Source: a virus
UHGV virus genome: UHGV-0300374
Length of the DNA: 64,000 nt
Direction: 5' to 3' (one strand)
A program made the position numbers and the translations under genes. Shown here one piece after another: positions 7,340 through 32,060 of the stretch. How positions within the stretch are numbered: the first letter of the stretch is position 1; each line of letters begins with the position of its first letter. The notes under the pieces are model-generated. The model was given only the letters and a program-made list of their open reading frames with translations, did no database searches and was not told the origin of the DNA.

Positions 7340-8449
7340 TTATTCTTGAGCGTCAGAACGAACGTCTACCAGCAACTGAGGACGAGTACAGTATGGCAGC
7401 ATGTAAGAGTGAGCTTCAAAGTCGATACCTTCGTCACGGTCTTTTTCGTATTCGAATACGTACAGTTCCTGACCAAGTGTATTTGCATAACCCATCTTAG
7501 GACATGGGCCATATGCCACTTCGAAGATGTTGTTTGCTTCACCAAGCATAGCAACGTTAGGGAAAGCGTGCCCTACACCTACAGTTCCATCCTGAGTAAC
7601 ACCATCAATGCTCACCAGAGTGTGAACCTTACCACGCTTGTCTTTGAACTTACCGTTGTACTGGACAAACTTAACACCACCGTAGTAGAAAGTGTTCATA
7701 TGAGCCTGAACGCCGTCAGAACCACCAGTTCTCAGAGAACCAGTAATCTGTTGCCAAGCCAGCGGAGTCTGCTGTGCAAGATAAGCGTCACGAATCTTAG
7801 GATGCTTAACCAGCTTGCTGAAGAATACACGGTCAACAACTACGTGAATTTCTTCACCGTTGATTACAGTGCCAGTCTTAGCTTCGTCTTCCATGTGCAT
7901 ACGCAGTTCTTCAATAGAAGCGTCGATGTCAGCATTAGGGTTGTCAAGGTCGAAGTAAACAGTCTTCTTCTGAACGTCGAACTGCTGGTACAGGTCAGCA
8001 TACAGAGTACCACGAGCATCAACAACTTTACCCTTCAGAGCTTGCATAAACAGGAACTCACGAGTAATATCGAACTTGGTACGAATCTTCATCAGCTTCT
8101 TAGCACGTACTACAGCTTCAGTAGTAAGTTCGTTTGCAGTGCCTGGCTGACGTACACCCTGAATCTCATCAGGAGTAATGCTTTCAACTTCTTTGAAGTA
8201 CATCATTGGGAAGCTGATTTGACGAACACGCTCAGGTGCGCTAGTCTCTGCTTTACGGCTATCACGGTCTACCGCATCAAGCAAGCTAACATCCCAATCA
8301 GTCAAGTCCATAAGGAAAGTAGTTTGGGTGATTGGTGCTGAACGGAACAGACCTAAGTTGGAAATATACCCATAAGTATTAGGGATAGACTGGACTTCAC
8401 CAGTCAGGTCAGCAAGGAAAAATCTGCTTTTTTCAGAATTAGTCAACAT
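7340..8449 (-). CDS. major capsid protein
   Basis: 369 aa; position between protease/scaffold and neck genes; GGAG RBS 9 nt upstream; call by size, context and family resemblance. Confidence 0.6.
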   Translation of the reverse strand: MLTNSEKSRFFLADLTGEVQSIPNTYGYISNLGLFRSAPITQTTFLMDLTDWDVSLLDAVDRDSRKAETSAPERVRQISFPMMYFKEVESITPDEIQGVRQPGTANELTTEAVVRAKKLMKIRTKFDITREFLFMQALKGKVVDARGTLYADLYQQFDVQKKTVYFDLDNPNADIDASIEELRMHMEDEAKTGTVINGEEIHVVVDRVFFSKLVKHPKIRDAYLAQQTPLAWQQITGSLRTGGSDGVQAHMNTFYYGGVKFVQYNGKFKDKRGKVHTLVSIDGVTQDGTVGVGHAFPNVAMLGEANNIFEVAYGPCPKMGYANTLGQELYVFEYEKDRDEGIDFEAHSYMLPYCTRPQLLVDVRSDAQE

Positions 8450-12528: not shown

Positions 12529-12545
12529 TCTTCTTCACCTAGCTA

Positions 12546-14162
12546 TCAACGTCTAAGCCCCTCATATGGGTTTCCTCTCACTAAGTCTGTGTGAGCACCC
12601 ATTGATGGTGGCTTGAATAATTTAACTTCGTTAAGACTGTTGAAAGCATCACTGGTAGCATCCACTTGGTCATCTTTAGTTTTGCCATCACCACAAAAGC
12701 CTTCAAGCTCTTGAAAGTAAGCTTCGTTCCAACTACCTCTCAAGACTTTTACAAGTCCAGCTTCAGAAGCAGCAGAAAATCCCGCAAAGCGGGTAACTTT
12801 ATCTTTATTTGTTGGTTTAGCTCTTGCACGATAGCCTTTCTCGGCAAGTTTCCTGATGAGGGATGTTGCGTAGGATTTACCAGCAGCGCCTGGGTCTTGA
12901 GGGATAAAAATACCAGTTCGCTTACCGTCACTTTCAGCAGTCAAATTAATTTGTGTTTCGACTCCAGAGGGTCTATCTCTAAATCTTACTACATCAATGA
13001 TATAATAGCAACCGTCTTTTTTAGATTTACCCATCTTAACACCTGCTGTCCAGTCTGGATTAGGGTTAACCTCAGATGGTAAAGTTGCTGCTAAGTCCCA
13101 TGCTCTAACATCAAATACATCTTCTGGGAGTGAATCAACAATCTCACACCATTGTCTTTGCCAATAGTTTGAACCTTCTGCACGAGCCTTCCAGTTACCG
13201 AAACGAAGTCTTGCAACGTTTACAGGAGTGTTGTTTTCCAACTTACCGCGATACTTTGGTTCTAAGAAGTCAAGAATTGGGTTATCATCAATCGTACCAG
13301 AGATGAAGGTGTATGTTTGAGGAATCTCAAGAGGGAACATTTCAAGAATCTTGTCTCTCTCCCAATCAGAAACCATCACACCATCATTCATTACATACCA
13401 ACGAATACGACCACACTTCTCAGGGTCTGGATAACCTTCTTCATCTAAGAATGGTTCTACCCAATCGTAAATAAAGTGGTCTCTATCTGGGTTCATGGAA
13501 ATCTTCATGTATGAATCACCTTCAGCACCAGAACGTAGACGGGTTTGTAGGTATGAAATCTGTGAAGCAGAGAAGTGTGTACCTTCGTCAAAGTAAATAG
13601 CTGAGTATTCAATACCCTGATGACCTTCAGCGTGCTTTTCAAGTTCTAGGTAGGTAAACTTGATAGTTGCCCCAGAAGGGAATGTGATAGTCATTTTCTG
13701 CTCGTGAGGAATCCCACCAAACTTACCAAATAGTTTCTTTGCAGCAGGCCATAAACCACCTTGTAGCTGTGTTGTATTTCGACGGAAATATACAGCATTA
13801 TAGTTAGGGTCTTCAATAAATCTTAAAGAGTCCATTAACAATGCAGCAGTTTTACCAGCACCAGCAGCACCACCATAAAGAACCAAGTCAGCATTAGTGT
13901 TTAAAAAGACCTCTTGAGAACCCGGCTGAGGGGCTACATAGTTCTTATCAGTCATCAATTTAAAGATAAGGCGAACTTGGTCTGGTGTGTATCTTAATAA
14001 AGTCAGAATTTGAGTTGGAAGGAATTTAGAGGGGTCTTTACCGAATGATTTGATAATTTCTTTTACTTCATCAGAAAGCCCCAACTCTCCAGCTAGGACT
14101 TTCCTAACATCTTCCACTCGCTTCTGCTTAACAGCATTTAAGTCCATTAAGCACCTCCGCAA
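12546..14162 (-). CDS. terL: terminase large subunit
   Basis: Walker A motif VLYGGAAGAGKT near N-terminus; 538 aa; followed by portal. Confidence 0.85.
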   Translation of the reverse strand: MRRCLMDLNAVKQKRVEDVRKVLAGELGLSDEVKEIIKSFGKDPSKFLPTQILTLLRYTPDQVRLIFKLMTDKNYVAPQPGSQEVFLNTNADLVLYGGAAGAGKTAALLMDSLRFIEDPNYNAVYFRRNTTQLQGGLWPAAKKLFGKFGGIPHEQKMTITFPSGATIKFTYLELEKHAEGHQGIEYSAIYFDEGTHFSASQISYLQTRLRSGAEGDSYMKISMNPDRDHFIYDWVEPFLDEEGYPDPEKCGRIRWYVMNDGVMVSDWERDKILEMFPLEIPQTYTFISGTIDDNPILDFLEPKYRGKLENNTPVNVARLRFGNWKARAEGSNYWQRQWCEIVDSLPEDVFDVRAWDLAATLPSEVNPNPDWTAGVKMGKSKKDGCYYIIDVVRFRDRPSGVETQINLTAESDGKRTGIFIPQDPGAAGKSYATSLIRKLAEKGYRARAKPTNKDKVTRFAGFSAASEAGLVKVLRGSWNEAYFQELEGFCGDGKTKDDQVDATSDAFNSLNEVKLFKPPSMGAHTDLVRGNPYEGLRR

Positions 14163-14582: not shown

Positions 14583-14658
14583 AAAATAACTTGGAGAATC
14601 CGAAGGGACTCGAACCCTTATAAACCTGTTTTGCAGACAGGCACATAGCCATTTCTGT
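14583..14658 (-). tRNA. tRNA-Cys (GCA)
   Basis: Acceptor GAATCCG/CGGATTC, T-arm GGGTTCGAGTCCC, anticodon loop CTGCAAA, CCA encoded. Confidence 0.7.
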
Positions 14659-14662
14659 CACG

Positions 14663-14755
14663 GATTCAAATTGGAGGAAGATACCAGACTTGAACTGGTA
14701 CACCGATTTCTCAGCTACTGGCAGTTTAGCAAACTGCTCCCTTACCTTTTAGGGT
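14663..14755 (-). tRNA. tRNA-Ser (GCU), long variable arm
   Basis: Acceptor GGAAGAT/ATCTTCC, anticodon stem GCAGT/ACTGC with loop TTGCTAA, about 93 nt. Confidence 0.6.
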
Positions 14756-14766
14756 TAATCTTCCAT

Positions 14767-15501
14767 TTATTTCTGTAATGCGCTCTTCATTTCTGGTGTT
14801 GCAATAGTGTCAATCACACCAGTTTTACAGGCATCATCAAACCAGTCTGGTAAGATACCTGCTAAGAACCCATTGATATTCGTTCTAAGGTACTCTGCAA
14901 TAAGGGCAGCTTCTTCTTCAATCATCTGCACAACTTCATCTGCATAAGCTGTAATCTTTGAAATACCTTCATTAATCTTACTAACAGCCTGATTAGCTAA
15001 ATCAGAAACAGTATCAAGACCCTCATCAATAGCGTCTTGTAAGTCACTTAACACACCATTAACACTATCTAGTGTACTGTTAATCATGTCAATAGCTTTT
15101 TGACCATACTCTGTAGCAACACCCATAATACCACTGAATGGTGTACAACCAACTTGTTCTCCTGCTGCACCCATAACATTGGAGTATCCCTTTGCTACCT
15201 GCATACGTGATGAAAACTCATCAATAGACTTTTGACCGTAGTCTGTCAGGGTCTTAGTAGTTGCTGTAGTGCTTGTAAGGCTTGTTGTAAAGCTGTTTAG
15301 AAGGACTGTTGTAAGTCCAGCAGCAACAAGCTTATCTTTTACTGTAGGGTCTGATACAGAACTAATAGAGCTTACAAGTGATGTAGAGGCAGCTACGGTT
15401 CCACCGAGAACTGCTGCACCAGTAATAAGGGGGTTAGAAAACCCTTTACCAGTTTTTAAGAGATTAAAAATCTCCTTACCTTGTTCTGTCATCTCTTTCA
15501 T
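14767..15501 (-). CDS. hypothetical protein (Ser/Thr-rich N-terminal half)
   Basis: ORF-track start 15564 overlaps tRNA-Phe; internal ATG at 15501 has RBS aaaggtg and avoids the tRNA. Confidence 0.45.
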   Translation of the reverse strand: MKEMTEQGKEIFNLLKTGKGFSNPLITGAAVLGGTVAASTSLVSSISSVSDPTVKDKLVAAGLTTVLLNSFTTSLTSTTATTKTLTDYGQKSIDEFSSRMQVAKGYSNVMGAAGEQVGCTPFSGIMGVATEYGQKAIDMINSTLDSVNGVLSDLQDAIDEGLDTVSDLANQAVSKINEGISKITAYADEVVQMIEEEAALIAEYLRTNINGFLAGILPDWFDDACKTGVIDTIATPEMKSALQK

Positions 15502-15517
15502 TAAGCACCTTTGAAAT

Positions 15518-15594
15518 TGGTAGTCCAGTGGGATTTGAACCCTCTTCTCATGTTTTTCAGACACGCGCTTTAACCATATAAGCTACTTGGACTA
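15518..15594 (-). tRNA. tRNA-Phe (GAA)
   Basis: Anticodon stem CGTGT/ACATG with loop CTGAAAA; T-loop TTCAAAT; acceptor TAGTCCA/TGGACTA. Confidence 0.6.
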
Positions 15595-15599
15595 TAAAT

Positions 15600-15675
15600 T
15601 GGGGTGACCTACGGGATTTGAACCCGTATAGACCATGTTCACAGCATGGGTCATTACCATTTATGATAAGGCCAC
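15600..15675 (-). tRNA. tRNA-His (GUG)
   Basis: Anticodon stem CCATG/CATGG loop CTGTGAA; discriminator C; T-arm ACGGGTTCAAATCCCGT. Confidence 0.7.
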
Positions 15676-15706
15676 ATTTAAGGACTCTCGTAAGAATCCT
15701 TAGAAG

Positions 15707-15782
15707 TGGCAGCGGCATAAGGATTTGAACCTTAATAAGACAGCTTCAGAGACTGCTGCATTGCCAGTTATGCTATACCGCT
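15707..15782 (-). tRNA. tRNA-Gln (CUG)
   Basis: Anticodon loop CTCTGAA; T-arm TAAGGTTCAAATCCTTA; acceptor AGCGGTA/TGCCGCT. Confidence 0.6.
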
Positions 15783-15787
15783 AAATT

Positions 15788-15866
15788 TGGTACTCCATAT
15801 CGGATTCGAACCGATACATAACACAGATTTTAAGTCTGGCCTCTCTGCCAATTGGAGTAATGGAGC
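15788..15866 (-). tRNA. tRNA with Leu anticodon UAA (class-I-like short variable arm)
   Basis: Anticodon loop CTTAAAA, discriminator A, T-arm ATCGGTTCGAATCCGAT; variable region only about 7 nt. Confidence 0.5.
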
Positions 15867-15868
15867 AT

Positions 15869-15944
15869 TGGCGGGGGATGTTGGAATTGAACCAACTTCT
15901 TCGATTTCAAAGACCGAGGTTTTAACCTTGTAAACTAATCCCCT
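15869..15944 (-). tRNA. tRNA-Gln (UUG)
   Basis: Anticodon stem TCGGT/ATCGA loop CTTTGAA; T-arm GTTGGTTCAATTCCAAC; 1:72 mismatch. Confidence 0.6.
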
Positions 15945-15952
15945 TTAAATCT

Positions 15953-16510
15953 TTACTTTCTCAGTGGATGAATAAAGAATGCCAACATAACTCTTTCCCT
16001 TGAGAATGCTCTTTCTTCTGGGACAACACTTTTTAGTTTCCATCCAATATAAATTCTCCAGTAAAATTGTTTACCAAAGATTTTAATTGATGGGATAAAA
16101 GCGAATAATCCCCAAGCATTCCTGTTCCACATTAGGAGATAACCAGTCTGATTATCTTCAGGGTCAGAACTTACGTTGATATTACCTTTCCACTTAGTAA
16201 CATCTTTTACATCTCTTCCTAATACATGGTAAGAGAAGTTATAAGCTTTGTTTCTCCAGAGCCATCCGACTCTTTGCATGTAGACACCTAGTTTACCAAT
16301 CCATCTAATATTAGCCCATCTTTTAACGTGACCTTCATCACCATCAATTGGGTTGTCATATGTCTCCATCCATCTGAACCCGAAAGGTAAGTGTCCTTTC
16401 TTCTCACTGTAGAATGGAACTACAAAAGGTGCTAAGATAACTGCTAGTATTGCTGCAAGTGGTTCTAGCAAAGCTAAGAAAATCCATGAAGCATATTTTA
16501 AGTATCTCAT
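15953..16510 (-). CDS. hypothetical membrane protein embedded in tRNA array
   Basis: 185 aa; hydrophobic N-terminus WIFLALLEPLAAILAVILAPFVV. Confidence 0.45.
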   Translation of the reverse strand: MRYLKYASWIFLALLEPLAAILAVILAPFVVPFYSEKKGHLPFGFRWMETYDNPIDGDEGHVKRWANIRWIGKLGVYMQRVGWLWRNKAYNFSYHVLGRDVKDVTKWKGNINVSSDPEDNQTGYLLMWNRNAWGLFAFIPSIKIFGKQFYWRIYIGWKLKSVVPEERAFSRERVMLAFFIHPLRK

Positions 16511-16749
16511 TGTCTAACCCTCGTAAGGAGGTAAGCATTATTACTTGTTTCTGAGCTTTCTGGTAACATTGTCTCAAAATTGACACTTTTAAGTTGTCTT
16601 CCACCAAAGCAATGACCAATAAATCTTTCTACTTTTATTGGGTCGCATTCCCATCCGACTTTTAAGAAAATGTGGGTATCTATAGTGGGAACCCTTACAA
16701 ACTCAATACTATTGGGATTTTCATGTTCAACGACGATTAATGTTTGCAT
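16507..16749 (-). CDS. hypothetical protein embedded in tRNA array
   Basis: ORF track, 80 aa, 4-nt overlap with downstream ORF. Confidence 0.4.
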   Translation of the reverse strand: MQTLIVVEHENPNSIEFVRVPTIDTHIFLKVGWECDPIKVERFIGHCFGGRQLKSVNFETMLPESSETSNNAYLLTRVRQ

Positions 16750-16767
16750 AAATTCCTCTTGCTTATC

Positions 16768-16843
16768 TGGCGCAGGATAAGGGATTCGAACCCCTATTAA
16801 CAGTTTCGTAGACTGTTGCTCTATCCATTTGAACTAATCCTGC
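16768..16843 (-). tRNA. tRNA-Arg (ACG)
   Basis: Anticodon stem ACAGT/ACTGT loop CTACGAA; acceptor GCAGGAT/ATCCTGC; T-loop TTCGAAT. Confidence 0.7.
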
Positions 16844-16848
16844 AAAAT

Positions 16849-16926
16849 TGGTGTTCCAAGACGGATTCGAACCGTCACTAATACAAGGTTTGAGCTTGCA
16901 TCCTCTGCCAATTGGGATACTGGAAC
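16849..16926 (-). tRNA. tRNA with Leu anticodon CAA (class-I-like short variable arm)
   Basis: Anticodon loop CTCAAAC, discriminator A, T-arm GACGGTTCGAATCCGTC. Confidence 0.5.
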
Positions 16927-16927
16927 A

Positions 16928-17002
16928 TGGTACTCACTAAAGGACTTGAACCTTTTTCTTCATCTTGTAAGGGTGGTGTTTTACCATATAAACTAAGCGA
17001 GT
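16928..17002 (-). tRNA. tRNA-Val (UAC) candidate, weak anticodon stem
   Basis: Acceptor ACTCGCT/AGTGAGT, D-arm GTTT..AAAC, T-arm AAAGGTTCAAGTCCTTT, loop CTTACAA but only 3 of 5 anticodon-stem pairs. Confidence 0.4.
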
Positions 17003-17098
17003 GTGAAAGAGGTCTGAAGTTGTGCCGCTAACTCAACTCCGTGGAATTTGTTACGGTCTTCAGTTGACTCAAAGCGGTCTTTCACTTGACCTCTGAAT

Positions 17099-17174
17099 TG
17101 GTGCTCCCACAAGGATTCGAACCCTGATAAGTTGCTTACAAGGCAACCGTAATAGCCAATTATACGATAGGAGC
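17099..17174 (-). tRNA. tRNA-Thr (UGU)
   Basis: Anticodon stem GTTGC/GCAAC loop CTTGTAA; T-arm CAGGGTTCGAATCCTTG. Confidence 0.7.
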
Positions 17175-17181
17175 ATTAATT

Positions 17182-17256
17182 TGGAGCATCCAGAGGGAAT
17201 CGAACCCTCAACCTCAGTTTGGAAGACTGTAATTTTCCCGTTTAAACTATGGATGC
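17182..17256 (-). tRNA. tRNA-Gly (UCC)
   Basis: Anticodon loop CTTCCAA; T-arm GAGGGTTCGATTCCCTC; acceptor GCATCCA/TGGATGC. Confidence 0.65.
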
Positions 17257-17262
17257 ACTAAT

Positions 17263-17338
17263 TGGTGGAGTCACTGAGAATTGAACTCAGTTCCCAAGTT
17301 TGCAAAACTCGAATTTTAACCATATAAACTATGACCCC
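17263..17338 (-). tRNA. tRNA-Ala (UGC)
   Basis: Acceptor GGGGTCA with G3:U70 wobble; anticodon loop TTTGCAA; T-arm CTGAGTTCAATTCTCAG. Confidence 0.7.
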
Positions 17339-17344
17339 ATTGTT

Positions 17345-17420
17345 TGGTACAGGTGGAGGGAATTGAACCCATCGTCTTACTGATTAAGAGTCAGCCGCAT
17401 AACCATTTTGCTACACCTGC
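17345..17420 (-). tRNA. tRNA-Lys (CUU), copy 1
   Basis: Anticodon stem GCTGA/TCAGT loop CTCTTAA; acceptor GCAGGTG/CACCTGT; T-stem weak. Confidence 0.55.
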
Positions 17421-17427
17421 ATTAATT

Positions 17428-17505
17428 TGGTAGGAGACAAGGGATTCGAACCCTCAAACACCAACTTCTAAGGATGGTAGGTTTACCAATTACCGTCAAT
17501 CTCCC
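17428..17505 (-). tRNA. tRNA with Leu anticodon UAG (class-I-like short variable arm)
   Basis: Anticodon loop CTTAGAA, discriminator A, acceptor GGGAGAT/GTCTCCT with wobbles. Confidence 0.45.
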
Positions 17506-17761
17506 ATTAAATCTTTTTAGAGAACTTCTAAGAACCTAAGCAACAAGGTTCCACAACAAGCTGTAATAACCTTAGAAGCCCTCTAAAAAGACCTAAAAAG
17601 GTCTTTGCATAGTCTTGTTTAATCCGGTGACTAGAACCTTTGGAGAGCTTGATATTATCTCTTCTCCGTGACACCTACTAGGTGCTTTATCAGTGTGTAC
17701 GACAATACACGAGGGATACCAAAGCAACATCCGAATGAAGCTTGGCTTTAAAATCTTATTA

Positions 17762-17851
17762 GGCGGTAAGTAAAGGAGTCGAACCCTCACCGTATCTCTA
17801 CAGTGGCAACTGTTTTCAAGACAGTTTGGCTACCATTAGCCGCTACCTACC
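17762..17851 (-). tRNA. tRNA-Ser (UGA), long variable arm
   Basis: Acceptor GGTAGGT/ACTTACC, anticodon stem ACTGT/ACAGT loop CTTGAAA, about 90 nt, CCA not fully encoded. Confidence 0.55.
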
Positions 17852-17864
17852 CCTAATAAGACTT

Positions 17865-17947
17865 TGGCATGGGACGGAGGAGTTGAACCCCTTTGAAACG
17901 GTGTTGGAAGCCGTTGCTCATGCCTTAGAGTCTTAACATCGTCCCAT
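17865..17947 (-). tRNA. tRNA-Trp (CCA) candidate with extended D region
   Basis: Perfect acceptor ATGGGAC/GTCCCAT, T-loop TTCAACT, hairpin AACGG-CTTCCAACA-CCGTT carrying CCA; D region about 7 nt longer than canonical. Confidence 0.4.
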
Positions 17948-18089
17948 ACTATAATTCGAAGCTTACCGTATTATCTCAACACTGTAAAGCCCCTTCTCAG
18001 ATTATTTACATGTTCTGGAAAACATGAGATACAGACCACCTCCCTACAGGAAGACCCGCTTAGGTCGTCTAAGTAATCTGCTAACTAAT

Positions 18090-18166
18090 TGGCACACCCT
18101 ACAGGATTCGAACCTGTAACTAACGATTTAGAAGACCGTTGCTCTATCCAATTGAACTAAGGGTGC
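18090..18166 (-). tRNA. tRNA-Arg (UCU)
   Basis: Anticodon stem ACGGT/ATCGT loop CTTCTAA; D-arm GTTCAATTGGATAGAGC; T-arm ACAGGTTCGAATCCTGT. Confidence 0.7.
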
Positions 18167-18413
18167 ATTAATCTTTAAAGACTCTCTTAGAAAGCCCTTA
18201 AAGATGCCCACCTTATTAATCATACCGTGGGCTAGTACGCCAAATTCTTTGATGAGGGATTGGAAGACCTCACTGGTGTTTAGCCTATCAAGCTACTGCC
18301 AGAAAAACATTGTCGTTTGCATTTATTTTAAATTTGCAAAATAGACGCTACGCAACGAAAACTAAGGTTACTATAAAGTAGTCACATCTCAATGTCAACA
18401 ACTTTATTGAAAT

Positions 18414-18489
18414 TGGTACTGGTAGGTGGAATCGAACCACCAATGTTCCCTTATCAGGGGAGTGTTATAACCTTCTTAACTATACCAGC
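18414..18489 (-). tRNA. tRNA-Ile (GAU)
   Basis: Anticodon loop CTGATAA; T-arm GGTGGTTCGATTCCACC; acceptor GCTGGTA/TACCAGT. Confidence 0.65.
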
Positions 18490-18490
18490 T

Positions 18491-18567
18491 TGGAGGTTCA
18501 GATGGGAATCGAACCCACATTCATAGGGCTTATGAGACCCTTGCATTACCTTATCTGCGACTGAACC
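18491..18567 (-). tRNA. tRNA-Met (CAU)
   Basis: Anticodon stem AGGGT/GCCCT loop CTCATAA; acceptor GGTTCAG/CTGAACC. Confidence 0.65.
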
Positions 18568-18571
18568 ATAT

Positions 18572-18647
18572 TGGTAGAAGTGGAGGGAATTGAACCCATC
18601 GTCTTACTGATTAAGAGTCAGCCGCATAACCATTCTGCTACACTTCC
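18572..18647 (-). tRNA. tRNA-Lys (CUU), copy 2
   Basis: Anticodon/T-arm identical to copy at 17345-17420 but acceptor GGAAGTG/CACTTCT. Confidence 0.55.
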
Positions 18648-18653
18648 ATTAAA

Positions 18654-18793
18654 TTATCTTTGTAGATAAGCTACCCAGACTTGCTTAAGGTCTGTAGCGA
18701 TGTGCCTTTTTGGGTTTAAATCTAGAATTTACCCTTTCACCCTTTGTGGTCGCATACTCACAGGTAAGCTTAATAACTTATCTACAAAGATAA
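18654..18793 (-). ncRNA. structured spacer bounded by perfect 17-bp inverted repeat (candidate small RNA/processing element)
   Basis: ttatctttgtagataag at 18654-18670 and its exact reverse complement at 18777-18793, 106 nt apart; no tRNA fold, no credible ORF. Confidence 0.35.
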
Positions 18794-18829
18794 TTACCAG
18801 ACCGTTGTTTATCATCTTAAGTGCTACCA

Positions 18830-18878
18830 TTACACCAACTCGACATCTGCCGAGTGAAGGAATCGAACCTTCGCCTTT
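18830..18878 (-). ncRNA. tRNA-like minihelix/tRNA fragment (T-arm plus closed acceptor hairpin)
   Basis: GAAGGTTCGATTCCTTC T-arm followed by ACTCGGC-AGAT-GTCGAGT hairpin then a D-arm-like GGTGTAATGGTAGCAC; no matching 5' acceptor strand upstream. Confidence 0.35.
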
Positions 18879-18907
18879 TCTTTACCGAGAAATAGATTGT
18901 TTAAGTT

Positions 18908-18935
18908 TTGCTGTAAACGGTCTTCTGTAAATTTG
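18908..18935 (-). repeat. conserved 28-nt tRNA-spacer motif, copy 1
   Basis: ttgctgtaaacggtcttctgtaaatttg; identical copy at 19390 and variants at 18996 and 19566. Confidence 0.5.
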
Positions 18936-18995
18936 TTGAGCCAGACCAAGTTTTAAATTTTTCAAAATTAAATTGGCTTGAAATTTTAAGTAACT

Positions 18996-19015
18996 TGCTG
19001 TATTTGGTCTTCTGC
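18996..19015 (-). repeat. conserved tRNA-spacer motif, copy 2 (variant)
   Basis: ttgctgtatttggtcttctg. Confidence 0.4.
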
Positions 19016-19075
19016 TCCTTTAAAGGATACTCGTAAGAACCCTTTAAGGGAGGGGCTAAATAGCCCTCTCAAAAT

Positions 19076-19152
19076 TGGCGGTTACGAAGGGATTTGAACC
19101 CTCATCATCTCCCGTGACAGGGGAGTATTTTAACCAAATTAAACTACATAAC
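19076..19152 (-). tRNA. tRNA-Asp (GUC)
   Basis: Perfect anticodon stem CTCCC/GGGAG loop CTGTCAC; acceptor GGTTATG/CGTAACC. Confidence 0.7.
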
Positions 19153-19157
19153 CTTTA

Positions 19158-19246
19158 TTGGTGTGCCGTGTAGGAGTCGAACCTACCGAGTCTCAATGAC
19201 AAGGGATTTACAGTCCCCACCGCTACCATCTACGGGATAACGACAC
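19158..19246 (-). tRNA. tRNA-Tyr (GUA), long variable arm
   Basis: Anticodon stem GGGGA/TCCCT loop CTGTAAA; 89 nt; T-arm GTAGGTTCGACTCCTAC. Confidence 0.65.
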
Positions 19247-19255
19247 ATTTAAATT

Positions 19256-19332
19256 TGGCGGTTAGTCAGGGATTCGAACCCTGTGCCATTCGCTTAACAG
19301 GCGACCGCACATACCTTATGTGCTTCCTAACC
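19256..19332 (-). tRNA. tRNA-Asn (GUU)
   Basis: Anticodon loop CTGTTAA; D-arm GCACA..TGTGC; T-arm CAGGGTTCGAATCCCTG. Confidence 0.6.
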
Positions 19333-19389
19333 ATGTTTAGCATTACCAGACCGTATATTTCAATTTTTCCGCTAAAAATTTAATAAATA

Positions 19390-19418
19390 TTGCTGTAAAC
19401 GGTCTTCTGTAAATTTGG
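19390..19418 (-). repeat. conserved 28-nt tRNA-spacer motif, copy 3
   Basis: ttgctgtaaacggtcttctgtaaatttgg abutting the 3' end of the tRNA at 19416. Confidence 0.5.
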
Positions 19419-19492
19419 AGGCGGGTGCAGGAGTCGAACCTGCCGATACCATGCTAATGAGACATGTGAGACGCCCTTTCTCTATACCCGCA
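19416..19492 (-). tRNA. tRNA with CAU anticodon (second Met, initiator or Ile-lysidine type)
   Basis: Anticodon stem CATGT/GCATG loop CTCATTA; T-arm GCAGGTTCGACTCCTGC; 1:72 mismatch. Confidence 0.5.
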
Positions 19493-19565
19493 ATTCTTAA
19501 TGACCAGACCAAATATCTTCTTTGTCCGATTAACTTTCAGATGAGTAGATTAAGTTTGCTGTAAT

Positions 19566-19595
19566 TGGTCTTCTGTCAAAACTGGCGTTCCAGAA
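19566..19595 (-). repeat. conserved tRNA-spacer motif, copy 4 (variant)
   Basis: ttgctgtaattggtcttctgtcaaaactgg; minus-strand reading contains TTGACA. Confidence 0.45.
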
Positions 19596-19670
19596 GGGAT
19601 TTGAACCCTCAAATATCCACTTTGAAAGAGTGGTGACTTTACCATTTTGTCTACTGGAACATTAATTTGG
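19593..19670 (-). tRNA. tRNA-Glu (UUC)
   Basis: Perfect anticodon stem CCACT/AGTGG loop CTTTCAA; acceptor GTTCCAG/CTGGAAC. Confidence 0.7.
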
Positions 19671-19677
19671 TCTCTGT

Positions 19678-19754
19678 TGGAGGACTTGAACCTCCGGCCT
19701 TACCGCCCCAAACGGAACGCTCTACCAAGCTGAGCTAAACAGAGATAAACTTTT
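19678..19754 (-). tRNA. tRNA-Pro (UGG)
   Basis: Anticodon loop TTTGGGG with G37; D-arm GCTCAGCTTGGTAGAGC; T-arm GGAGGTTCAAGTCCTCC. Confidence 0.65.
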
Positions 19755-19909: not shown

Positions 19910-21325
19910 TTACCAGATATAACGGTCAATCATTACTGCTTTGAGCATTACACTGATTGGGTCAAACTTCTCACCACCAAGCAGAGCTTTTAAAGTGGCT
20001 GGAGAGAACCCTGATACCATTGCTACACCATTATCCTTAACAGATACTTCGCAAGTACCATTACGGTTTGCTAAGTACCAGAATACCAGTTGTGGCATCT
20101 CATATCCAGCTTTTTTGTACTTACTCTGAATTGCTTCAAAGTTTGTACGACCGTTAGCTCCATCAACCTGATTGAACTCCATATCGGAGAAGATGATAAG
20201 CTTACTTGGCATATCTTTCTGAGTCAAGTTGTTTCTTTTACCTGTTTCAAGAATGCGGTCAAAAGCTGCTTGTAAGTTAGTTGAGCCATATTCAACGTGT
20301 CGCATCACCTGACGATGACGGTTTCGTAAATCACCACTCAGTTCGATGAAGTGAGGGTTTGTTGAATAAACCATTAACTCATTCTTAAAGCAACCTGTAT
20401 TGCGTTCTGCTACATACAAGGCAAGTGATACACCAATATCCAGAGCAGTAATGGAGCCAAAATTCACCCAAGACATCGAACTTGATACATCAGACATACA
20501 CAAGATGTTTTCACCTTCTGCCATCCAGTTTGGTAGTGCTTTCCACTGCTCATTAGCAACATCTGCATTACCATACTTGACAGATTTAATCACATCGTAT
20601 GGGTAAACAGCACCAGCGTTAATCTTAGTCTCACCTTTTGATAAGGACTCGATGTAAGCTTTGTAACGTTCTCCATCCTTACGGTTAAACAGTTTTTGGT
20701 AACGTGCAGCAGCAAGTGAAGGAACCTTACTGTAGTCAATCTTGCCAAACTCATTAGCAGAGATTTTTTGCTCAACTGTATCAGATAGTGCAGACAACAG
20801 TGTGCGGTACTCTTTCTCATTCAAGTTGGCAAACTTGCAGAAACGTTTTACAAACTGCTTATGACGTGGTTTGACTCGTGGTAGCCACTTGGCTGCCAAA
20901 CCTGCTGTTGCAGGGTCTAGTAATGCTGCTTCTAAATGTTTGAAGGCATCTGTCTCGAAACGAGTACCTACGAAGATTTTGAAGTCATCAAAACGACCAA
21001 GTTCTGCAATCTTATCCATAATGCGAAGAACCTGTGTAGGCTCTAAAACTTTATCTTCAATTGCTTGAAGCAAAACAGTTCTGAAGGCTTTACGCTCACC
21101 CATACCTTCTCGTACATCTCGCATATGCAGTAAAATACGAACTGCAACATCAACATCCTCATGCAAAGCTTTGTAGAACAGGTCTGGTAAGATTTCTACG
21201 TTGCTACGGCTTGAACCAGCAGCTTTGTAAAAGTCTACAAGAGCAGACATTGATGAAGTATGGTTTACAGCACCATTTTCAGTTCGACCTGCATGAAGGT
21301 GCGCATGTTTAAATAATTCGCTCAT
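19910..21325 (-). CDS. von Willebrand factor A (MIDAS) domain protein, possibly TROVE/Ro60-like (DUF2828-type)
   Basis: 471 aa; motif ENILCMSDVSSSMSW matches vWA MIDAS DxSxS after a hydrophobic strand; alpha-helical N-terminal part; immediately upstream of tRNA array. Confidence 0.5.
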   Translation of the reverse strand: MSELFKHAHLHAGRTENGAVNHTSSMSALVDFYKAAGSSRSNVEILPDLFYKALHEDVDVAVRILLHMRDVREGMGERKAFRTVLLQAIEDKVLEPTQVLRIMDKIAELGRFDDFKIFVGTRFETDAFKHLEAALLDPATAGLAAKWLPRVKPRHKQFVKRFCKFANLNEKEYRTLLSALSDTVEQKISANEFGKIDYSKVPSLAAARYQKLFNRKDGERYKAYIESLSKGETKINAGAVYPYDVIKSVKYGNADVANEQWKALPNWMAEGENILCMSDVSSSMSWVNFGSITALDIGVSLALYVAERNTGCFKNELMVYSTNPHFIELSGDLRNRHRQVMRHVEYGSTNLQAAFDRILETGKRNNLTQKDMPSKLIIFSDMEFNQVDGANGRTNFEAIQSKYKKAGYEMPQLVFWYLANRNGTCEVSVKDNGVAMVSGFSPATLKALLGGEKFDPISVMLKAVMIDRYIW

Positions 21326-21406
21326 ATTTTACTCTCTTCTCTCATTTGTTGTTTGATGTGACAGACTTTAGAGCAACTTTGAAGAGTCTGTCAACACCTT
21401 TTAAAA

Positions 21407-21778
21407 TTATTTTTTAAGCGTTGCTACAGCAGAGAACGTTGGTTTGTTATCTGTCTGAGACTGACCGCCGTTATCAGGGGTCTTCTTAGTGTCTGCTGCA
21501 ATTGCTTTCATCTCACCTGCTGAGTGAGTCATGATAGTTTTACCGACCTCAATCATGCTCTTGATGGTTACGTCGTCTGTGTTTAACCCGAACTCTGCAA
21601 GCTTAGCAGCGTCCCTTGTAACAATCGCTTCAAACAACTTTGCAGCAAACTCAGCAGAATTATCAATGGTCAGTTGAGCTTTTACAAGTGAGCTTTTGTT
21701 ACGAGAGCCTTTTGGTCTTCCAGATGGGTTTCCAGATTGGCCTTTTTTAAACTGGCCTTTGTTTGTTCTGTTTTTCAT
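21407..21778 (-). CDS. small basic protein with N-terminal GNPxGRPKG motif
   Basis: 123 aa; N-terminus KGQFKKGQSGNPSGRPKGSRNKS, a motif recalled from phage DUF5681-type proteins. Confidence 0.4.
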   Translation of the reverse strand: MKNRTNKGQFKKGQSGNPSGRPKGSRNKSSLVKAQLTIDNSAEFAAKLFEAIVTRDAAKLAEFGLNTDDVTIKSMIEVGKTIMTHSAGEMKAIAADTKKTPDNGGQSQTDNKPTFSAVATLKK

Positions 21779-21826
21779 TGGTATGCCTCTTATAAGACCT
21801 CTTAAAAGGCTTTTAAGATAAAAGAT

Positions 21827-21846
21827 AGATATCCAGAAAGATATCT
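21827..21846. promoter_or_regulatory. palindromic operator-like site in divergent intergenic region
   Basis: AGATATC-cagaaa-GATATCT inverted repeat between divergently oriented gene blocks. Confidence 0.3.
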
Positions 21847-22027
21847 GTTTAAATAGCCTTTTTAGAGGAACCTTTTAAGTTATCTTCTAAGTATTTATAA
21901 GCCTACACCTTGTCAAGTACTTTGTCAACAACTTTTTTAACTTGCAATAGTTCTTGACTTGTTGTATGGATTACTGTACCATCTTACTTAAAGCTGTAGG
22001 TCTGCCTTGTTCTACAAAGGAGACTTA

Positions 22028-22189
22028 ATGAGAAAATCAAATAAACCGAAGAAAGGTAAGAATACCAATCACTGTAAGGAATCAAAAAGGGTAGAATTAA
22101 TCTACTATTCATCCTCTGAAATTGGTCTGTACCTGTTCTTTCAAAATTACAGAAGACAAGAGGATTATCTATGTGTAGTTCCCAATTAG
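22028..22189 (+). CDS. hypothetical small basic protein (first gene of plus-strand block)
   Basis: ATG at 22028 preceded by AAGGAG 6 nt upstream; ORF-track start 22007 lacks RBS. Confidence 0.4.
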   Translation: MRKSNKPKKGKNTNHCKESKRVELIYYSSSEIGLYLFFQNYRRQEDYLCVVPN

Positions 22190-22404
22190 AAATCGCAGAT
22201 ATTATAGATTTATATCAAACTGCAAAGAGTCATGGCTATATAACCTCAATTGGAAAGAATAGTCACTATGATGCTTTGACTGGAATGTATTTCAGGGCAA
22301 TGGCTCAATCTAGTGAACAACACTTAATGGTTTCTTCCAGTGAGTTTACTTCGTTTCTCTATTGCAGCAAAATTATAAATCGCAGGAGAACTGAAAAATG
22401 TTAA
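22171..22404 (+). CDS. hypothetical protein
   Basis: ORF track, 77 aa, RBS aagagga. Confidence 0.35.
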   Translation: MCSSQLEIADIIDLYQTAKSHGYITSIGKNSHYDALTGMYFRAMAQSSEQHLMVSSSEFTSFLYCSKIINRRRTEKC

Positions 22405-22988
22405 CAGTAAGTTTTAATTACAATAGTGATGGCTCTGTATCAATTAATTCGCCATATGCAAATGACCTGCTTAAAGAGCTAGTCAATCAGTGTGATAGAG
22501 GTCTTCACTATGTTCAAAATTCTTTTAAACAGAAGACTATTGCTAATAACTTGATGCGTGTAACAGTAACGGCATCGAATCCAAATTATGACTTTGATAG
22601 TGAAAGTCCGTACTCATTAGTTGCGCTTGGAGAGAGCAGCCAATTCAAACTTGTTTGCCACGACTCAGAAACATTCCTTAAGGTATTTTCAAACCTTATC
22701 CATAATAATAAGTACAGCTACGTTGACGGTAGTGTAAATTTCTATCCAGCAAACTATACATGTTTGTTGGTTGATAATATGAGAAAAAGTAAGCAAGAGC
22801 CTACAGAAATTTCATTTGATGTGAACTCTAGTCCAGACGCAGAAACAAGTAAGAACTTTGATATGAGTTACGCATTGTCACTCAGTAAGAAATCCGAGTT
22901 CATTGATTATGTCAATGGATTTGGTTTTAAGTTTGATGAGAGTATGAATCTTAAAAAACTTAAGAACCTGCTTAAGACCAAAGCTTAA
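22398..22988 (+). CDS. hypothetical protein
   Basis: ORF track, 196 aa. Confidence 0.45.
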   Translation: MLTVSFNYNSDGSVSINSPYANDLLKELVNQCDRGLHYVQNSFKQKTIANNLMRVTVTASNPNYDFDSESPYSLVALGESSQFKLVCHDSETFLKVFSNLIHNNKYSYVDGSVNFYPANYTCLLVDNMRKSKQEPTEISFDVNSSPDAETSKNFDMSYALSLSKKSEFIDYVNGFGFKFDESMNLKKLKNLLKTKA

Positions 22989-23035
22989 GTGTGAATAGGG
23001 GCTGATGCCCCTTTAACTATTTATAAGGATATTTA

Positions 23036-23407
23036 ATGAAAGCTAAGAGTGCAAAAGACTTTTATTGCTTCCTACAATCCTATATCAATTCCGTGCAAAA
23101 TGGTGAAAGGTACAACCTTAATGATGTTATCCCAACACCTTTGACATGGAGACTCAGTAAATGGCCTGAAGAAGATATTACACCAACAATCGAACAACGC
23201 ACCTACAAACCTGAAATCAATATTCCAGATTCTGAGAACCTATTATATCCAATGTTCCATATTGTTGGACTTGGAAGATTCCTTATGGATATCCAGTATG
23301 TAATTGGTAAAGGTTATAAGGTTAAAGGCATTGTTGTTGGTGATGTATCTCCGCATCACAAAGGTTATTTTAGACTAAACGCACATTTAGAGGCTAAAAA
23401 GAAATGA
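23036..23407 (+). CDS. hypothetical protein, paralog of N-terminal domain of next gene
   Basis: 123 aa; shares Y..F.....V..G.RY......P.T......WPE.DI......YKP architecture with residues 1-120 of the 23404 ORF. Confidence 0.5.
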   Translation: MKAKSAKDFYCFLQSYINSVQNGERYNLNDVIPTPLTWRLSKWPEEDITPTIEQRTYKPEINIPDSENLLYPMFHIVGLGRFLMDIQYVIGKGYKVKGIVVGDVSPHHKGYFRLNAHLEAKKK

Positions 23408-24789
23408 TTAAAGCAAAGACTTACCCAGACTTCAAAGAGTTTGTGAAGGGCTTCGTTGCAAATGTAAAGGCTGGTAAGAGATATGATTTTAGAACATATC
23501 AAGAGGCTATTTTACCACTCACATATAGTTCATATTGGCCTGAAGCTGATATTGCAGAAGTTGAGAAGTTTGACTACAAACCAGACTATAAAGTCCCATT
23601 TAGTGATGAGTTGCTTTACAGCATCGGTGCTCAAATGAGAACTTCTGACTTCTTCATGGACTTACAATATGCAATTATCAATGGTAAAGACGTTGACACA
23701 GTTTATTGTGAATGGCTGGCAAGAGTTAAACCGTTCTCAATGTTGAATGCTAAGTTGAAGGATGCTATCAAGCCACCATCAATCACTCAGCAACCAACCA
23801 ATCAAACAGTAAATGAAGGTGGCACACTTACCCTAAGCGTTATTGCAACTAATGCCACTGGATATCAATGGAAAAAAGATGGTGAGGATATCACTAGCGC
23901 CACATCTGCAACCTACACAAAACAGTCTGTAGCACCTTCTGATGCTGGTTCTTATACTTGTGTTGTTTCTGGAGAGGCTGGTACAAGTGTTACCTCAGAT
24001 GCGGCAACAGTTACTGTCAACGCACTGCCTGTGATTACACAGCAACCTTCTAGCCAGACCATCAATGAGGGTGGAAACATCAGCTTGGAAGTGACTGCAA
24101 CGGGTGCAACGGGTTACCAGTGGAAGAAAGATGGCTCTGACATTCCTTCGGCTACAGAGGCTACCTATAGCAAGTCTGGTGCGCTGCCAGCAGATGCAGG
24201 TTCATACACTTGCGTTGTAACAGGTGCAGGTGGTTCTGTTACTTCTAGCCCTGCAACTGTCACAGTAAATGCTTTGCCAGTTATTACCAAGCAGCCAACC
24301 AATCAGGTAGTTAATGAGGGTAACTCTTTGACACTGAGTGTTGAGGCTACAGGTGCAGAAGGTTACCAATGGAAAAAGGACAATGTGAACATCCCTAGCG
24401 CAACTGGTGCGACTTACACGAAAGCTAACGCAGTTCCTGCCGATGCTGGTTCATATACCTGTGTAGTTACTGGCGCTGGTGGTACAACAGTCACATCCAA
24501 TGCAGCAACAGTTACTGTGAATGCACTTCCAGTAATCACTCAGCAACCAACCAATCAAGAAATCAATGAAGGTGAGACCTTAACGCTGAATGTTGTGGCA
24601 ACAGGTGCGACAGGTTACCAGTGGAAGAAAGGTGAGGAAGACATCCTCGATGCAACTACTGCAACTTACACCAAAGAAGGTGCAACCGCTGCTGATTCAG
24701 GAAGCTACACTTGTGTAGTTACTGGTGCAGGTGGCTCTGTAACATCTAATGCGGCAACAGTTACAGTTAACCCAGCAGGGGAGGCATAA
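23404..24789 (+). CDS. Ig-like repeat protein (four tandem Ig-like domains after an N-terminal domain)
   Basis: Four about 80-aa repeats of form ITQQPTNQxVNEGxxLTLxVxATGATGYQWKKDGxDI...AGSYTCVVTGAGGSVTSxxATVTVNALPV. Confidence 0.6.
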   Translation: MIKAKTYPDFKEFVKGFVANVKAGKRYDFRTYQEAILPLTYSSYWPEADIAEVEKFDYKPDYKVPFSDELLYSIGAQMRTSDFFMDLQYAIINGKDVDTVYCEWLARVKPFSMLNAKLKDAIKPPSITQQPTNQTVNEGGTLTLSVIATNATGYQWKKDGEDITSATSATYTKQSVAPSDAGSYTCVVSGEAGTSVTSDAATVTVNALPVITQQPSSQTINEGGNISLEVTATGATGYQWKKDGSDIPSATEATYSKSGALPADAGSYTCVVTGAGGSVTSSPATVTVNALPVITKQPTNQVVNEGNSLTLSVEATGAEGYQWKKDNVNIPSATGATYTKANAVPADAGSYTCVVTGAGGTTVTSNAATVTVNALPVITQQPTNQEINEGETLTLNVVATGATGYQWKKGEEDILDATTATYTKEGATAADSGSYTCVVTGAGGSVTSNAATVTVNPAGEA

Positions 24790-25253
24790 TGCAACTCTCA
24801 CAGAAAGGTTTAGAAGCTATTAAGTTCTTTGAAGGTCTTAAGCTGGAGGCTTACGAAGATTCTGCTGGAATCCCCACAATTGGGTATGGGACTATCCGTA
24901 TTGCTGGTAAACCTGTTAAGATGGGTATGAAAATTACGGCTGAACAAGCTGAACAGTATCTTCTTGCAGATGTTGAAAAATTCGTTGCAGCAGTTAACAA
25001 AGCTATCAAGGTTCCAACTTCTCAGAATGAGTTTGATGCACTTGTAAGTGAAACATACAACATTGGTATCACGGCTATGCAGGACTCCACATTTATCAAG
25101 CGCCACAATGCTGGTAATAAGGTTGGTTGTGCAGAAGCTATGCAGTGGTGGAACAAGGTCACAGTCAAAGGTAAGAAGGTCACTTCAAACGGCCTGAAAA
25201 ACAGACGTAGAATGGAAGCTGACATTTATCTTGACAGTGTATATCCAAAGTAA
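24789..25253 (+). CDS. endolysin, T4-lysozyme-like muramidase (GH24)
   Basis: N-terminal FEGLKLEAYEDSAGIPTIGYGT motif with catalytic Glu/Asp spacing; 154 aa; start overlaps upstream stop (TAATG). Confidence 0.75.
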   Translation: MQLSQKGLEAIKFFEGLKLEAYEDSAGIPTIGYGTIRIAGKPVKMGMKITAEQAEQYLLADVEKFVAAVNKAIKVPTSQNEFDALVSETYNIGITAMQDSTFIKRHNAGNKVGCAEAMQWWNKVTVKGKKVTSNGLKNRRRMEADIYLDSVYPK

Positions 25254-25263
25254 TATCTTCATA

Positions 25264-25290
25264 GGCTCCTTCGGGAGCCTTTTTTATTTT
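25264..25290 (+). terminator. intrinsic terminator after endolysin
   Basis: aggctcc-ttcg-ggagcct stem-loop followed by tttttatttt. Confidence 0.6.
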
Positions 25291-25304
25291 CTAAGGAGAA
25301 AACT

Positions 25305-25703
25305 ATGAAACTTTGGGCTAGTGACTTTGGAACTTTTAAGTACACTCGTAATGGCTCGCTTGTACGCATTGTCGGGAACAATGTGGTTTCAAGAGGTGAC
25401 AAGGTATATACACGGTTTACTGTAGAGCTTGTTGAGTTGTCACCTATTGAGTCTGTGAACAATGGCCTGTTCAAGTTTGAGACTTACAATGTCAACGAAC
25501 ATGGACAATTCAACCCTCTTGGTGAAAGTGGACTTGATATTATTTCAGAGCACCCATTGACAAAAGAGCAACTTGCAGGTTACTATAAATCTGTTCTGGA
25601 AAGGCAGTTAGCAACACATGAACAAGAAGCTAACTACCATCTACAGCATTGCGAAACTTTAAGAGCAAAAATCGAACAAGCAGAGAGAGGTTTTTATGAA
25701 TAA
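25305..25703 (+). CDS. hypothetical protein
   Basis: ORF track, 132 aa, RBS aaggaga. Confidence 0.45.
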   Translation: MKLWASDFGTFKYTRNGSLVRIVGNNVVSRGDKVYTRFTVELVELSPIESVNNGLFKFETYNVNEHGQFNPLGESGLDIISEHPLTKEQLAGYYKSVLERQLATHEQEANYHLQHCETLRAKIEQAERGFYE

Positions 25704-30439: not shown

Positions 30440-30450
30440 AATATCTTAAG

Positions 30451-30476
30451 AGCCTCCTTAATTGGGGGCTTTTTAT
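30451..30476 (+). terminator. intrinsic terminator closing plus-strand block
   Basis: agcctcc-ttaatt-gggggct hairpin followed by ttttt. Confidence 0.5.
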
Positions 30477-30479
30477 TGA

Positions 30480-32060
30480 GTAAAATTTACGAAATTTATA
30501 TTTTTATAAAATTTTATCGGTTGTCCCAACCTCTGGGTCACCATCATATGTGAACAAAATATCTACCCTTCTTAACAACCTTCTTAATCTTACTCTCTAT
30601 ATAGTTATATAGTACTATATAGTATCTTAGTAACTATCTAGTGGTCTTAATAGCCCTCTGTATAGCCCTTCTAAATAGCCATCTAAACACTCTTCTAACA
30701 AGCCTTCTAAACAACCTATACAATCATCTTAACCATCTCTCTACACACTCTTAGAAGCTCCTATACACCTCTTAATCTCTATGTAAGCTATGATACTCTC
30801 TATAGGTGTTCACTAGGTATTACTAAGCCTCTATATAGACTGTTTTAGCCAACTTAACAGGAATATCTTTACAGACCTTATCTCACAAGGTCTAACACGG
30901 TACTAACAAGGTATCTTATAAGCCTGTTTCTACCTGTATTTTAGAAAGACTGTATAGGTAATTATTCAGAATTTTAAAATTTTTATAAAATAGGACTATC
31001 AAGTCATTTTTTAGGGTCTTTGAAGGAACTGAAAAATATCTGATTAGGATGTATATCTGCTTGGTAGCCCTTAACAGCTCCCTTACAAGTACTTTGCAAA
31101 ATTTTAAAATATCCTTAACAATCTCTTAACAGTTCTCACATCTTCTTAACAACTCTTCAAAGGTCTTAACAGATTCTTAACAAGTCTAACAAGGTTGTAA
31201 CAGTTTTCTAACAAGACTTAATAGGGCTTTACAGAATCTTAACAGATGACTAACAAGAGCTAACAAGTTAATTTTAAAGAGTTATTTTGTTAAGATAATT
31301 AACAAGTTTCTAACAAGTGTTTAATCTTTTTAACAAGCTATTAACATGGTCACTATCTCTTTCTTATCGTTCCCTTTCCCTTCTTAGTGATTCCTTAAAC
31401 ATACCTCTTAAAAGCTCTCTATAGCTCTCTATAGCTCTTTATAAGCCCCTTTAAGCCTCTTCCTAGTATTTACCCCCCAACTGTACAGATAGCTCTTTAT
31501 AGGTCTTTACAGGAGCTTTTAAGGCTATGTCAAAGACTCTTACAAGGCTTTTACGTGGTCTTAACAGAGATTTAACAAGGGGCTAACAAGTTGCTAACAA
31601 GTGCCTTAAAAGCATAACTATGTAGGGTTTGTTAAGAAATTGTTAAGAAAATGTTAAGGGGGCTAGCATTTACGTAACTTTATAGCCTCTTTTACGTAAC
31701 TTTGAAGTAACTTTATAGCCCCTATAACATGTTTTTTAGTGACTAGCAAGGGGGTTGTTTAACCATTCACAAGATACTAACCAGCCTATAAGCTTACACC
31801 CTTATAAGATTCTTTTAAGCCTCTATAAAGCCCTGTAAAGAGCTTTTTAAGATAGGTTAATGCAATCCCTTAAGTTAGGTTGATAAGGCTGTTATAGAGC
31901 TTTATAGAGCGTTTAAATGGGCCATCCCCTTTCTGGGGTTATTGGCTTTTATTTAAGTTGATTTGATAAAAGGTTATAGAGTAGACTATAGAGTTATTGC
32001 TTTTAAGGTCTGATAAGATTCTGGAAAGGAAAGGGAAAGGGATTGTATAAGGATTCGATA
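30480..32060. repeat. 1.6-kb ORF-free block of phased degenerate short repeats (CTTAACAAG / CTAACAAG / CTCTATAG families, both orientations)
   Basis: No ORF of 60 aa or more on either strand; between 31083 and 31330 about 20 copies of nnCTTAACAr every 10-12 bp; inverted copies tgttaagaaa x3 near 31620; tacgtaactttatagcc x2 near 31670. Confidence 0.7.

Follow-up and report, generated by a model that had tools for sequence, protein, structure and literature searches.

The closest described systems to the gene pair examined here are Bas63 Hex-Dec (bas63_0124) and Sf14 gp20, two Hoc-like decoration proteins (PMC12609058, PMC11821841). Both carry at the N terminus a capsid-binding domain (CapBD) of ~120 residues with two pseudo-symmetric lobes, which sits as a monomer at the centre of the facet-edge, pentamer-proximal hexamers; none occupies the hexamers on the three-fold axes, and the immunoglobulin-like (Ig-like) domains after the CapBD are flexible and not resolved in the maps (PMC12609058, PMC11821841). 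In Sf14 the anchor is held by a pair of salt bridges in which its Arg79 and Arg107 meet Asp221 of the major capsid protein (MCP) (Sf14 paper). The Bas63 authors placed the Hex-Dec gene >10 kb outside the structural module. Virion mass spectrometry has detected gp20 in Sf14 and gp36 in Felix O1, the latter at 44% coverage. Here we describe a 461-aa open reading frame (ORF) with the same architecture and a 123-aa paralog of its CapBD, which lie in tandem upstream of an endolysin gene in a 64,000-nucleotide stretch of virus genome UHGV-0300374 (hereafter the window).

We identify the 461-aa product as a predicted Felixounavirus hexamer decoration protein of the Hex-Dec/gp20 family, which has all the defining features of that family that can be read from sequence. 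A phmmer search of the PDB aligned residues 1-459 with chain S of 9NCF ("immunoglobulin-like domain protein", E=6.9e-272) and matched the protein to chain S of 9C2D and 9C3A ("putative tail protein", E=5.8e-162). These three entries are icosahedral capsid reconstructions of Bas63 (JohannRWettstein) and Shigella phage Sf14. The asymmetric unit in 9NCF and 9C2D comprises nine MCP chains, nine chains of Dec (the other protein that decorates the capsid in these phages), and one chain S, and all three proteins match genes in the window (Table 1). Identity to Bas63 Hex-Dec is 91% overall and 98% in residues 1-124; the CapBD is 88% identical to that of Sf14 gp20. Both anchor arginines, Arg79 and Arg107, are present in the window protein, and Asp221 (in KIRDAY) is present in the window MCP. 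The same architecture and the same count of four Ig-like repeats are found in Bas63, the position upstream of the endolysin is shared with Bas63 and Sf14, and the differences from these proteins are at the sequence level only, mostly in Ig repeat 3. The 461-aa protein is thus already known and structurally solved, and its off-module gene position has already been published.

The window is classed here as a Felixounavirus genome. A 2.9-kb region around the cassette shares 93-97% DNA identity with many Felixounavirus genomes, among them MET-P1-301, AN17P8, and pinkbiff, and gene order is the same in Felix O1. In the solved capsids of close orthologues, and by orthology predicted here too, one Hex-Dec monomer docks its CapBD in every pentamer-proximal hexamer of the T=9 capsid (60 in all) through salt bridges from Arg79 and Arg107 to MCP Asp221, and the 20 hexamers on the icosahedral three-fold axes remain unfilled.

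Most GenBank records call this gene a tail protein, a reading to which we give next to no credence. Its appeal lies in family names: the best PHROG match is phrog_3995 'tail protein' (E=3.7e-242), further matches are to the major-tail-protein families phrog_158, phrog_853, and phrog_3575, and Felix O1 gp36 was named 'major tail protein' in 2010. However, phrog_3995 is the protein's own family under an inherited name, and the tail families align to the Ig region only (residues 96-207 and similar), which explains the spread of the wrong name. The solved structures 9NCF and 9C2D put the protein on the capsid, and the Bas63 authors reject the tail annotation explicitly as incorrect in most genomes. 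Hundreds of Felixounavirus, Mooglevirus, and Suspvirus records would better carry the name "hexamer decoration protein (Hoc-like)", and the four-Ig form of Hex-Dec is not limited to Bas63.

A sequence-only reading of this locus had drawn attention to two ORFs with a common N-terminal domain, the larger bearing four Ig-like repeats, directly upstream of the endolysin and far from the virion module. That observation is correct in every particular. Both ORFs are present with the lengths described, BLASTP aligns the 123-aa protein with the first ~120 residues of the 461-aa protein (36% identity over 101 residues, E=3e-17), a Pfam domain search finds the four repeats, each 83-84 aa long, and the endolysin gene and the distant MCP gene lie where the description puts them. 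The accompanying interpretation, a surface-binding accessory or adhesin-like protein set apart from the Ig proteins of capsids and tails, is partly supported. Its implied contrast falls away, as the orthologues are virion components by cryo-electron microscopy (Bas63, Sf14) and mass spectrometry (Felix O1, Sf14). The same data make the protein a decoration protein, which is one half of what that reading had set against its own proposal, the other being a lack of envelope-binding activity. Its surface-binding guess agrees with the hypothesis published for the Hex-Dec orthologues, in which the Ig repeats would mediate weak adhesion.

Pfam models Ig_3 (E=5.7e-45), Ig_2, and I-set each match four stretches of the 461-aa protein, and the motif P[SV]IT[QK]QP marks the repeat boundaries. 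Among themselves the repeats share 72-73% protein identity and 61-70% DNA identity. Tandem Repeats Finder reported no repeats in 22900-25000 because the copies are too diverged in DNA. Since they are closer in protein than in DNA, the four repeats are old copies. This excess of protein over DNA likeness fits purifying selection of long standing during which the DNA diverged at synonymous sites; recombination between repeats may also have been selected against. In relatives the repeats number one to four, with protein lengths of 210, 294, 372-377, and 461 aa.

The Ig portion is strongly acidic (net charge ~-15), and the four domains would project from the capsid as a flexible fibre that may help the phage, without being essential, to stick weakly to cells or to surfaces in the environment. 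The best-supported account of Hex-Dec is accordingly the published one, a putative display fibre of the Hoc type that is non-essential and assists weak adhesion, the last step being one that we infer. Knock-down of agp125, the SUSP1 orthologue of Hex-Dec, was scored 'Not Fit' and so had no fitness effect in a laboratory host (CRISPRi-ART supplement). In the PhageMaP screen Bas63 g124 matters more on E. coli S17-1 than on three other strains, which points to a conditional role and which the authors speculatively attribute to adhesion.

Hex-Dec works in the manner of T4 Hoc. Both proteins are monomers at hexamer centres that project a string of Ig-like domains, and Hoc too is acidic, non-essential, and proposed to act in weak adhesion or aggregation. 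Hoc-like PHROG families match the 461-aa protein in its Ig region only (residues 121-372). In contrast, the capsid-binding domain is C-terminal in Hoc and N-terminal in Hex-Dec, where it is larger, topologically distinct, and of pseudo-two-fold symmetry (Bas63 paper). A fold search with a CapBD-fold model, built from the paralog, matched only 9NCF, 9C2D, and 9C3A among solved structures. Hex-Dec is therefore not a strict member of the Hoc family, nor a Hoc homologue outside the Ig domains. T5 pb10 shares the domain order of Hex-Dec, and its Ig domain (PDB 5LXK) matches Ig repeat 3 (E=8e-12); no similarity was detected between the pb10 anchor and the Hex-Dec CapBD.

The CapBD-only paralog is unreported in the Bas63 and Sf14 structure papers, where it is neither modelled nor mentioned (PMC12609058, PMC11821841). 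It corresponds to Felix O1 ORF37, Bas63 bas63_0125, Sf14 gp021, VpaE1 ORF40c, and SUSP1 agp126, and each of the two window proteins matches both phrog_4463 and phrog_3995. Of 253 Ounavirinae records, 233 have it at full length directly upstream of Hex-Dec. A single lineage (REP5/SP116; 19 records) keeps only a pseudogene that has lost its ATG and bears frameshifts and a deletion of 226 nt. The ratio of nonsynonymous to synonymous divergence (dN/dS; pairwise Nei-Gojobori over nine phages, dS up to 1.4) is 0.12 for the paralog, 0.04 for the Hex-Dec CapBD, 0.11-0.13 for Ig repeat 1, and 0.09 each for the endolysin and the gene upstream. The paralog is thus under purifying selection, and its protein is evolving about twice as fast as the CapBD.

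An AlphaFold2 model of the paralog from a 27-sequence alignment (predicted local distance difference test score (pLDDT) 78, predicted template modelling score (pTM) 0.77) has the CapBD fold; the single-sequence model (pLDDT 50) was unusable. The paralog belongs to the anchor-domain family by fold, and it departs from that family at Arg79. The Arg79 column is an invariant Gly in all paralogs, including the deep-branching P0099, and in the Arg107 column the window paralog has His where other paralogs have Gln or Arg, with a 1-residue indel nearby in the alignment. No match to the paralog was found in Pfam, NCBIfam, or PADLOC. Its isoelectric point (pI) ranges from 5.6 to 9.1 between genera, for which reason net charge was dropped as a clue to its partner.

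In Felix O1, transcription of ORFs 36 and 37 peaks at 60 min, alongside the portal, sheath, baseplate, and fibre genes, and that of the endolysin and upstream ORF38 at 25 min. Knock-down of the SUSP1 paralog agp126 was likewise scored 'Not Fit', with no fitness effect (CRISPRi-ART supplement). Felix O1 gp37 is absent from the 17 listed virion proteins, though four of 9.7-13.7 kDa are listed. We take the paralog to be a late protein of the anchor fold that is functional yet dispensable and most likely has no stable place on mature capsids.

An exhaustive hidden Markov model search of 1.84 billion representatives returned just 13 matches, so the CapBD family is a small one, limited to Ounavirinae-like phages; word-indexed protein searches recovered close relatives only. 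An 87-kb metagenomic scaffold from a far more distant relative (L016) has the three genes too, again with stop and start codons that overlap, its paralog 45% and its anchor domain 58% identical to those of the window. A neighbour-joining tree of anchor domains splits the paralogs from the Hex-Decs as two clades, and both copies of the anchor gene have been kept since the duplication. The CapBD gene is directly upstream of a lysozyme gene in every relative examined. In P0105 and P0109, the distant single-copy relatives with readable context, it follows a ~185-207-aa ORF, opposite a DUF5681 gene, and the tandem paralog is absent, which places the duplication in the clade of the window and L016. 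The anchor gene beside the endolysin therefore looks ancestral, and the duplication old but derived.

What follows the anchor domain varies among relatives. The single-copy CapBD proteins P0101, P0102, P0105, and P0109, from distant Ounavirinae-like phages, bear at the C terminus either a Big_2 domain or a ~100-aa domain without assignment or a Lys/Ser-rich tail. At three metagenomic loci (L016 4001-5726, L006 10001-11213, L007 10001-10968) the anchor gene is kept beside the lysozyme and the display module is swapped, variously for a pair of Ig domains, for an unassigned domain of ~100 aa, or for a Lys/Ser-rich tail. With its C-terminal modules exchanged in this way, the anchor domain behaves as a modular display scaffold. 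The CapBD could be useful for phage display, since it is by nature an anchor at the N terminus and accepts diverse cargo behind it (Ig, Big_2, Lys/Ser-rich tails).

Taken together, we hold with high confidence that the 461-aa protein is a Hoc-like Hex-Dec and that the 123-aa protein is an old duplicate of the CapBD, expressed late, accessory, and dispensable in the laboratory. The paralog descends from a duplication of the CapBD alone, kept the fold, and exchanged Arg79 for an invariant glycine. Our best guess is that it is a late accessory protein, absent or at low copy in mature virions, which during assembly may work on capsid hexamers or else on Hex-Dec. Several points weigh against this combined reading. 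The capsid site of Hex-Dec in this phage is transferred from orthologues at 91-98% identity. The S17-1 effect of Bas63 g124 comes from a pooled screen, and its reading as adhesion is speculative on the part of the authors. The capsid-facing surface of the paralog was judged at the two published contact residues only. The data behind its absence from virions are negative: the list for Felix O1 has a threshold of 25% coverage, the Sf14 virion table covers assigned structural proteins only, and a low-copy or symmetry-mismatched paralog could have been missed.

The duplicate could have other fates. It might be a second, Ig-less plug that fills the 20 three-fold hexamers left by Hex-Dec, with the quasi-equivalent hexamers shared out between the two paralogs, given its CapBD fold and its late expression and translational coupling with Hex-Dec. 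The change of Arg79 to Gly would fit a different site geometry, and the Sf14 paper credits the site specificity of Hex-Dec to a shifted Asp221 at the three-fold hexamers, and a monomer on a three-fold axis would blur under icosahedral averaging. Yet a mass of 14 kDa should stay visible after three-fold averaging, and both cryo-electron microscopy studies report the other hexamers without density. The paralog is not in the Felix O1 virion list, the VpaE1 text adds only gp54, gp58, and gp68 to the Felix O1 set (so the paralog is presumably absent there too), and the gene is lost in the 19-record lineage; we regard the plug as very unlikely. That same lineage, together with the SUSP1 knock-down without fitness effect, might instead suggest a decaying, functionless relic of the duplication. 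We find this hard to credit in view of the dN/dS of 0.12, the 233 full-length copies, and retention of the tandem pair in a lineage whose paralog is only 45% identical.

A role away from the capsid, either an intracellular one such as interaction with a host or defence factor or that of a leader cistron for coupled Hex-Dec translation, is possible without being probable. It would account for the missing Arg79 anchor, the twofold faster protein change, the net charge that varies between genera, and the dispensability seen in SUSP1 and in the 19-record lineage, and neighbouring Bas63 genes do have defence phenotypes (g123, g130). However, the domain and defence-system searches above gave no match, PhageMaP reports g125 as neither counter nor trigger, and the late timing agrees with that of morphogenesis genes; the dN/dS of 0.12 shows that the protein's own sequence is of consequence, a point against a mere leader cistron. 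We consider it unlikely that the paralog is an unrecognised capsid-assembly or decoration factor, whether as a three-fold-hexamer plug or as a transient binder of hexamers or Hex-Dec that controls Hex-Dec loading. If it were, the duplicated anchor domain would tell apart the quasi-equivalent hexamers of a T=9 shell, and action on hexamers or on Hex-Dec loading would make this a tidy case of subfunctionalised decoration-protein paralogs.

The three genes form a compact cassette that ends in a terminator graded strong (Table 1). The stop codon of the paralog overlaps the Hex-Dec start codon in ATGA, and the Hex-Dec stop codon and the endolysin start codon have one base in common in TAATG, the endolysin starting on the last base of the Hex-Dec stop codon (24789). 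The endolysin is translationally coupled to Hex-Dec. The hairpin upstream of the paralog is a possible weak terminator or boundary. A scan of 21300-25500 found eight sigma-70-like sites against 9.4±2.4 in shuffled sequence, no excess, and we therefore claim no promoter. The MCP gene lies ~15 kb from the cassette on the opposite strand, with an array of 26 tRNA genes (14592-19744, minus strand) between the structural and packaging operon and the divergent region that opens the Hex-Dec block.

Table 1 Coordinates of the decoration-protein cassette and of the capsid genes in the window
Feature	Position	Strand	Remarks
Hairpin GGGGC-TGAT-GCCCC, then TTT	22998-23014	+	In the 47-nt spacer from the 196-aa ORF to the paralog
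Shine-Dalgarno AAGGA	23026-23030	+	Ahead of the paralog
Paralog, 123 aa	23036-23407	+	CapBD only; phrog_4463
Hex-Dec ORF, 461 aa	23404-24789	+	
Hex-Dec N-terminal CapBD, aa 1-124	23404-23775	+	Contains Arg79 and Arg107
Ig-like repeat 1, aa 125-208	23776-24027	+	Pfam Ig_3, Ig_2, I-set
Ig-like repeat 2, aa 209-291	24028-24276	+	Pfam
Ig-like repeat 3, aa 292-375	24277-24528	+	Pfam
Ig-like repeat 4, aa 376-459, plus two residues and stop codon	24529-24789	+	Pfam
Endolysin, T4-type lysozyme	24789-25253	+	PF00959, E=6.8e-41
Intrinsic terminator AGGCTCC-TTCG-GGAGCCT, then TTTTTTATTTT	25263-25290	+	Ends the three-gene cassette
MCP, predicted Hex-Dec binding partner	7340-8449	-	9ncf_A, E=7e-242; 9c2d_A, E=3e-233
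Dec, beta-tulip trimeric decoration protein, 125 aa	8483-8860	-	9ncf_J, E=7.9e-73; 9c2d_J, E=1.1e-69

Two neighbours of the cassette have counterparts with described phenotypes in Bas63. At the protein level the window endolysin shares 98% identity with Bas63 g123, which in PhageMaP triggers the retron Ec67 defence and is toxic only with the retron present. That g123 might be the paralog was considered and rejected, as the GenBank record used (MZ501086) has g123 as the endolysin and g125 as the paralog. On the minus strand at 19910-21325, a 471-aa DUF2828/vWA-like protein, called 'RNA-binding protein' in relatives, is a homologue of bas63_0130, which PhageMaP identifies as a counter to the 'ppl' defence system.

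Farther downstream, between the plus-strand block and the next minus-strand block, ~1.1 kb (30440-31600) has no ORF of at least 60 aa. It contains at least six iterated 18-24-nt copies of a TAACA...CTAACAAG motif (31167-31348, also at 30685 and 30893) along with A/T-rich palindromes. The region may be a replication origin or a genome-end region; its counterpart in Felix O1 (12305-13928) is non-coding too.

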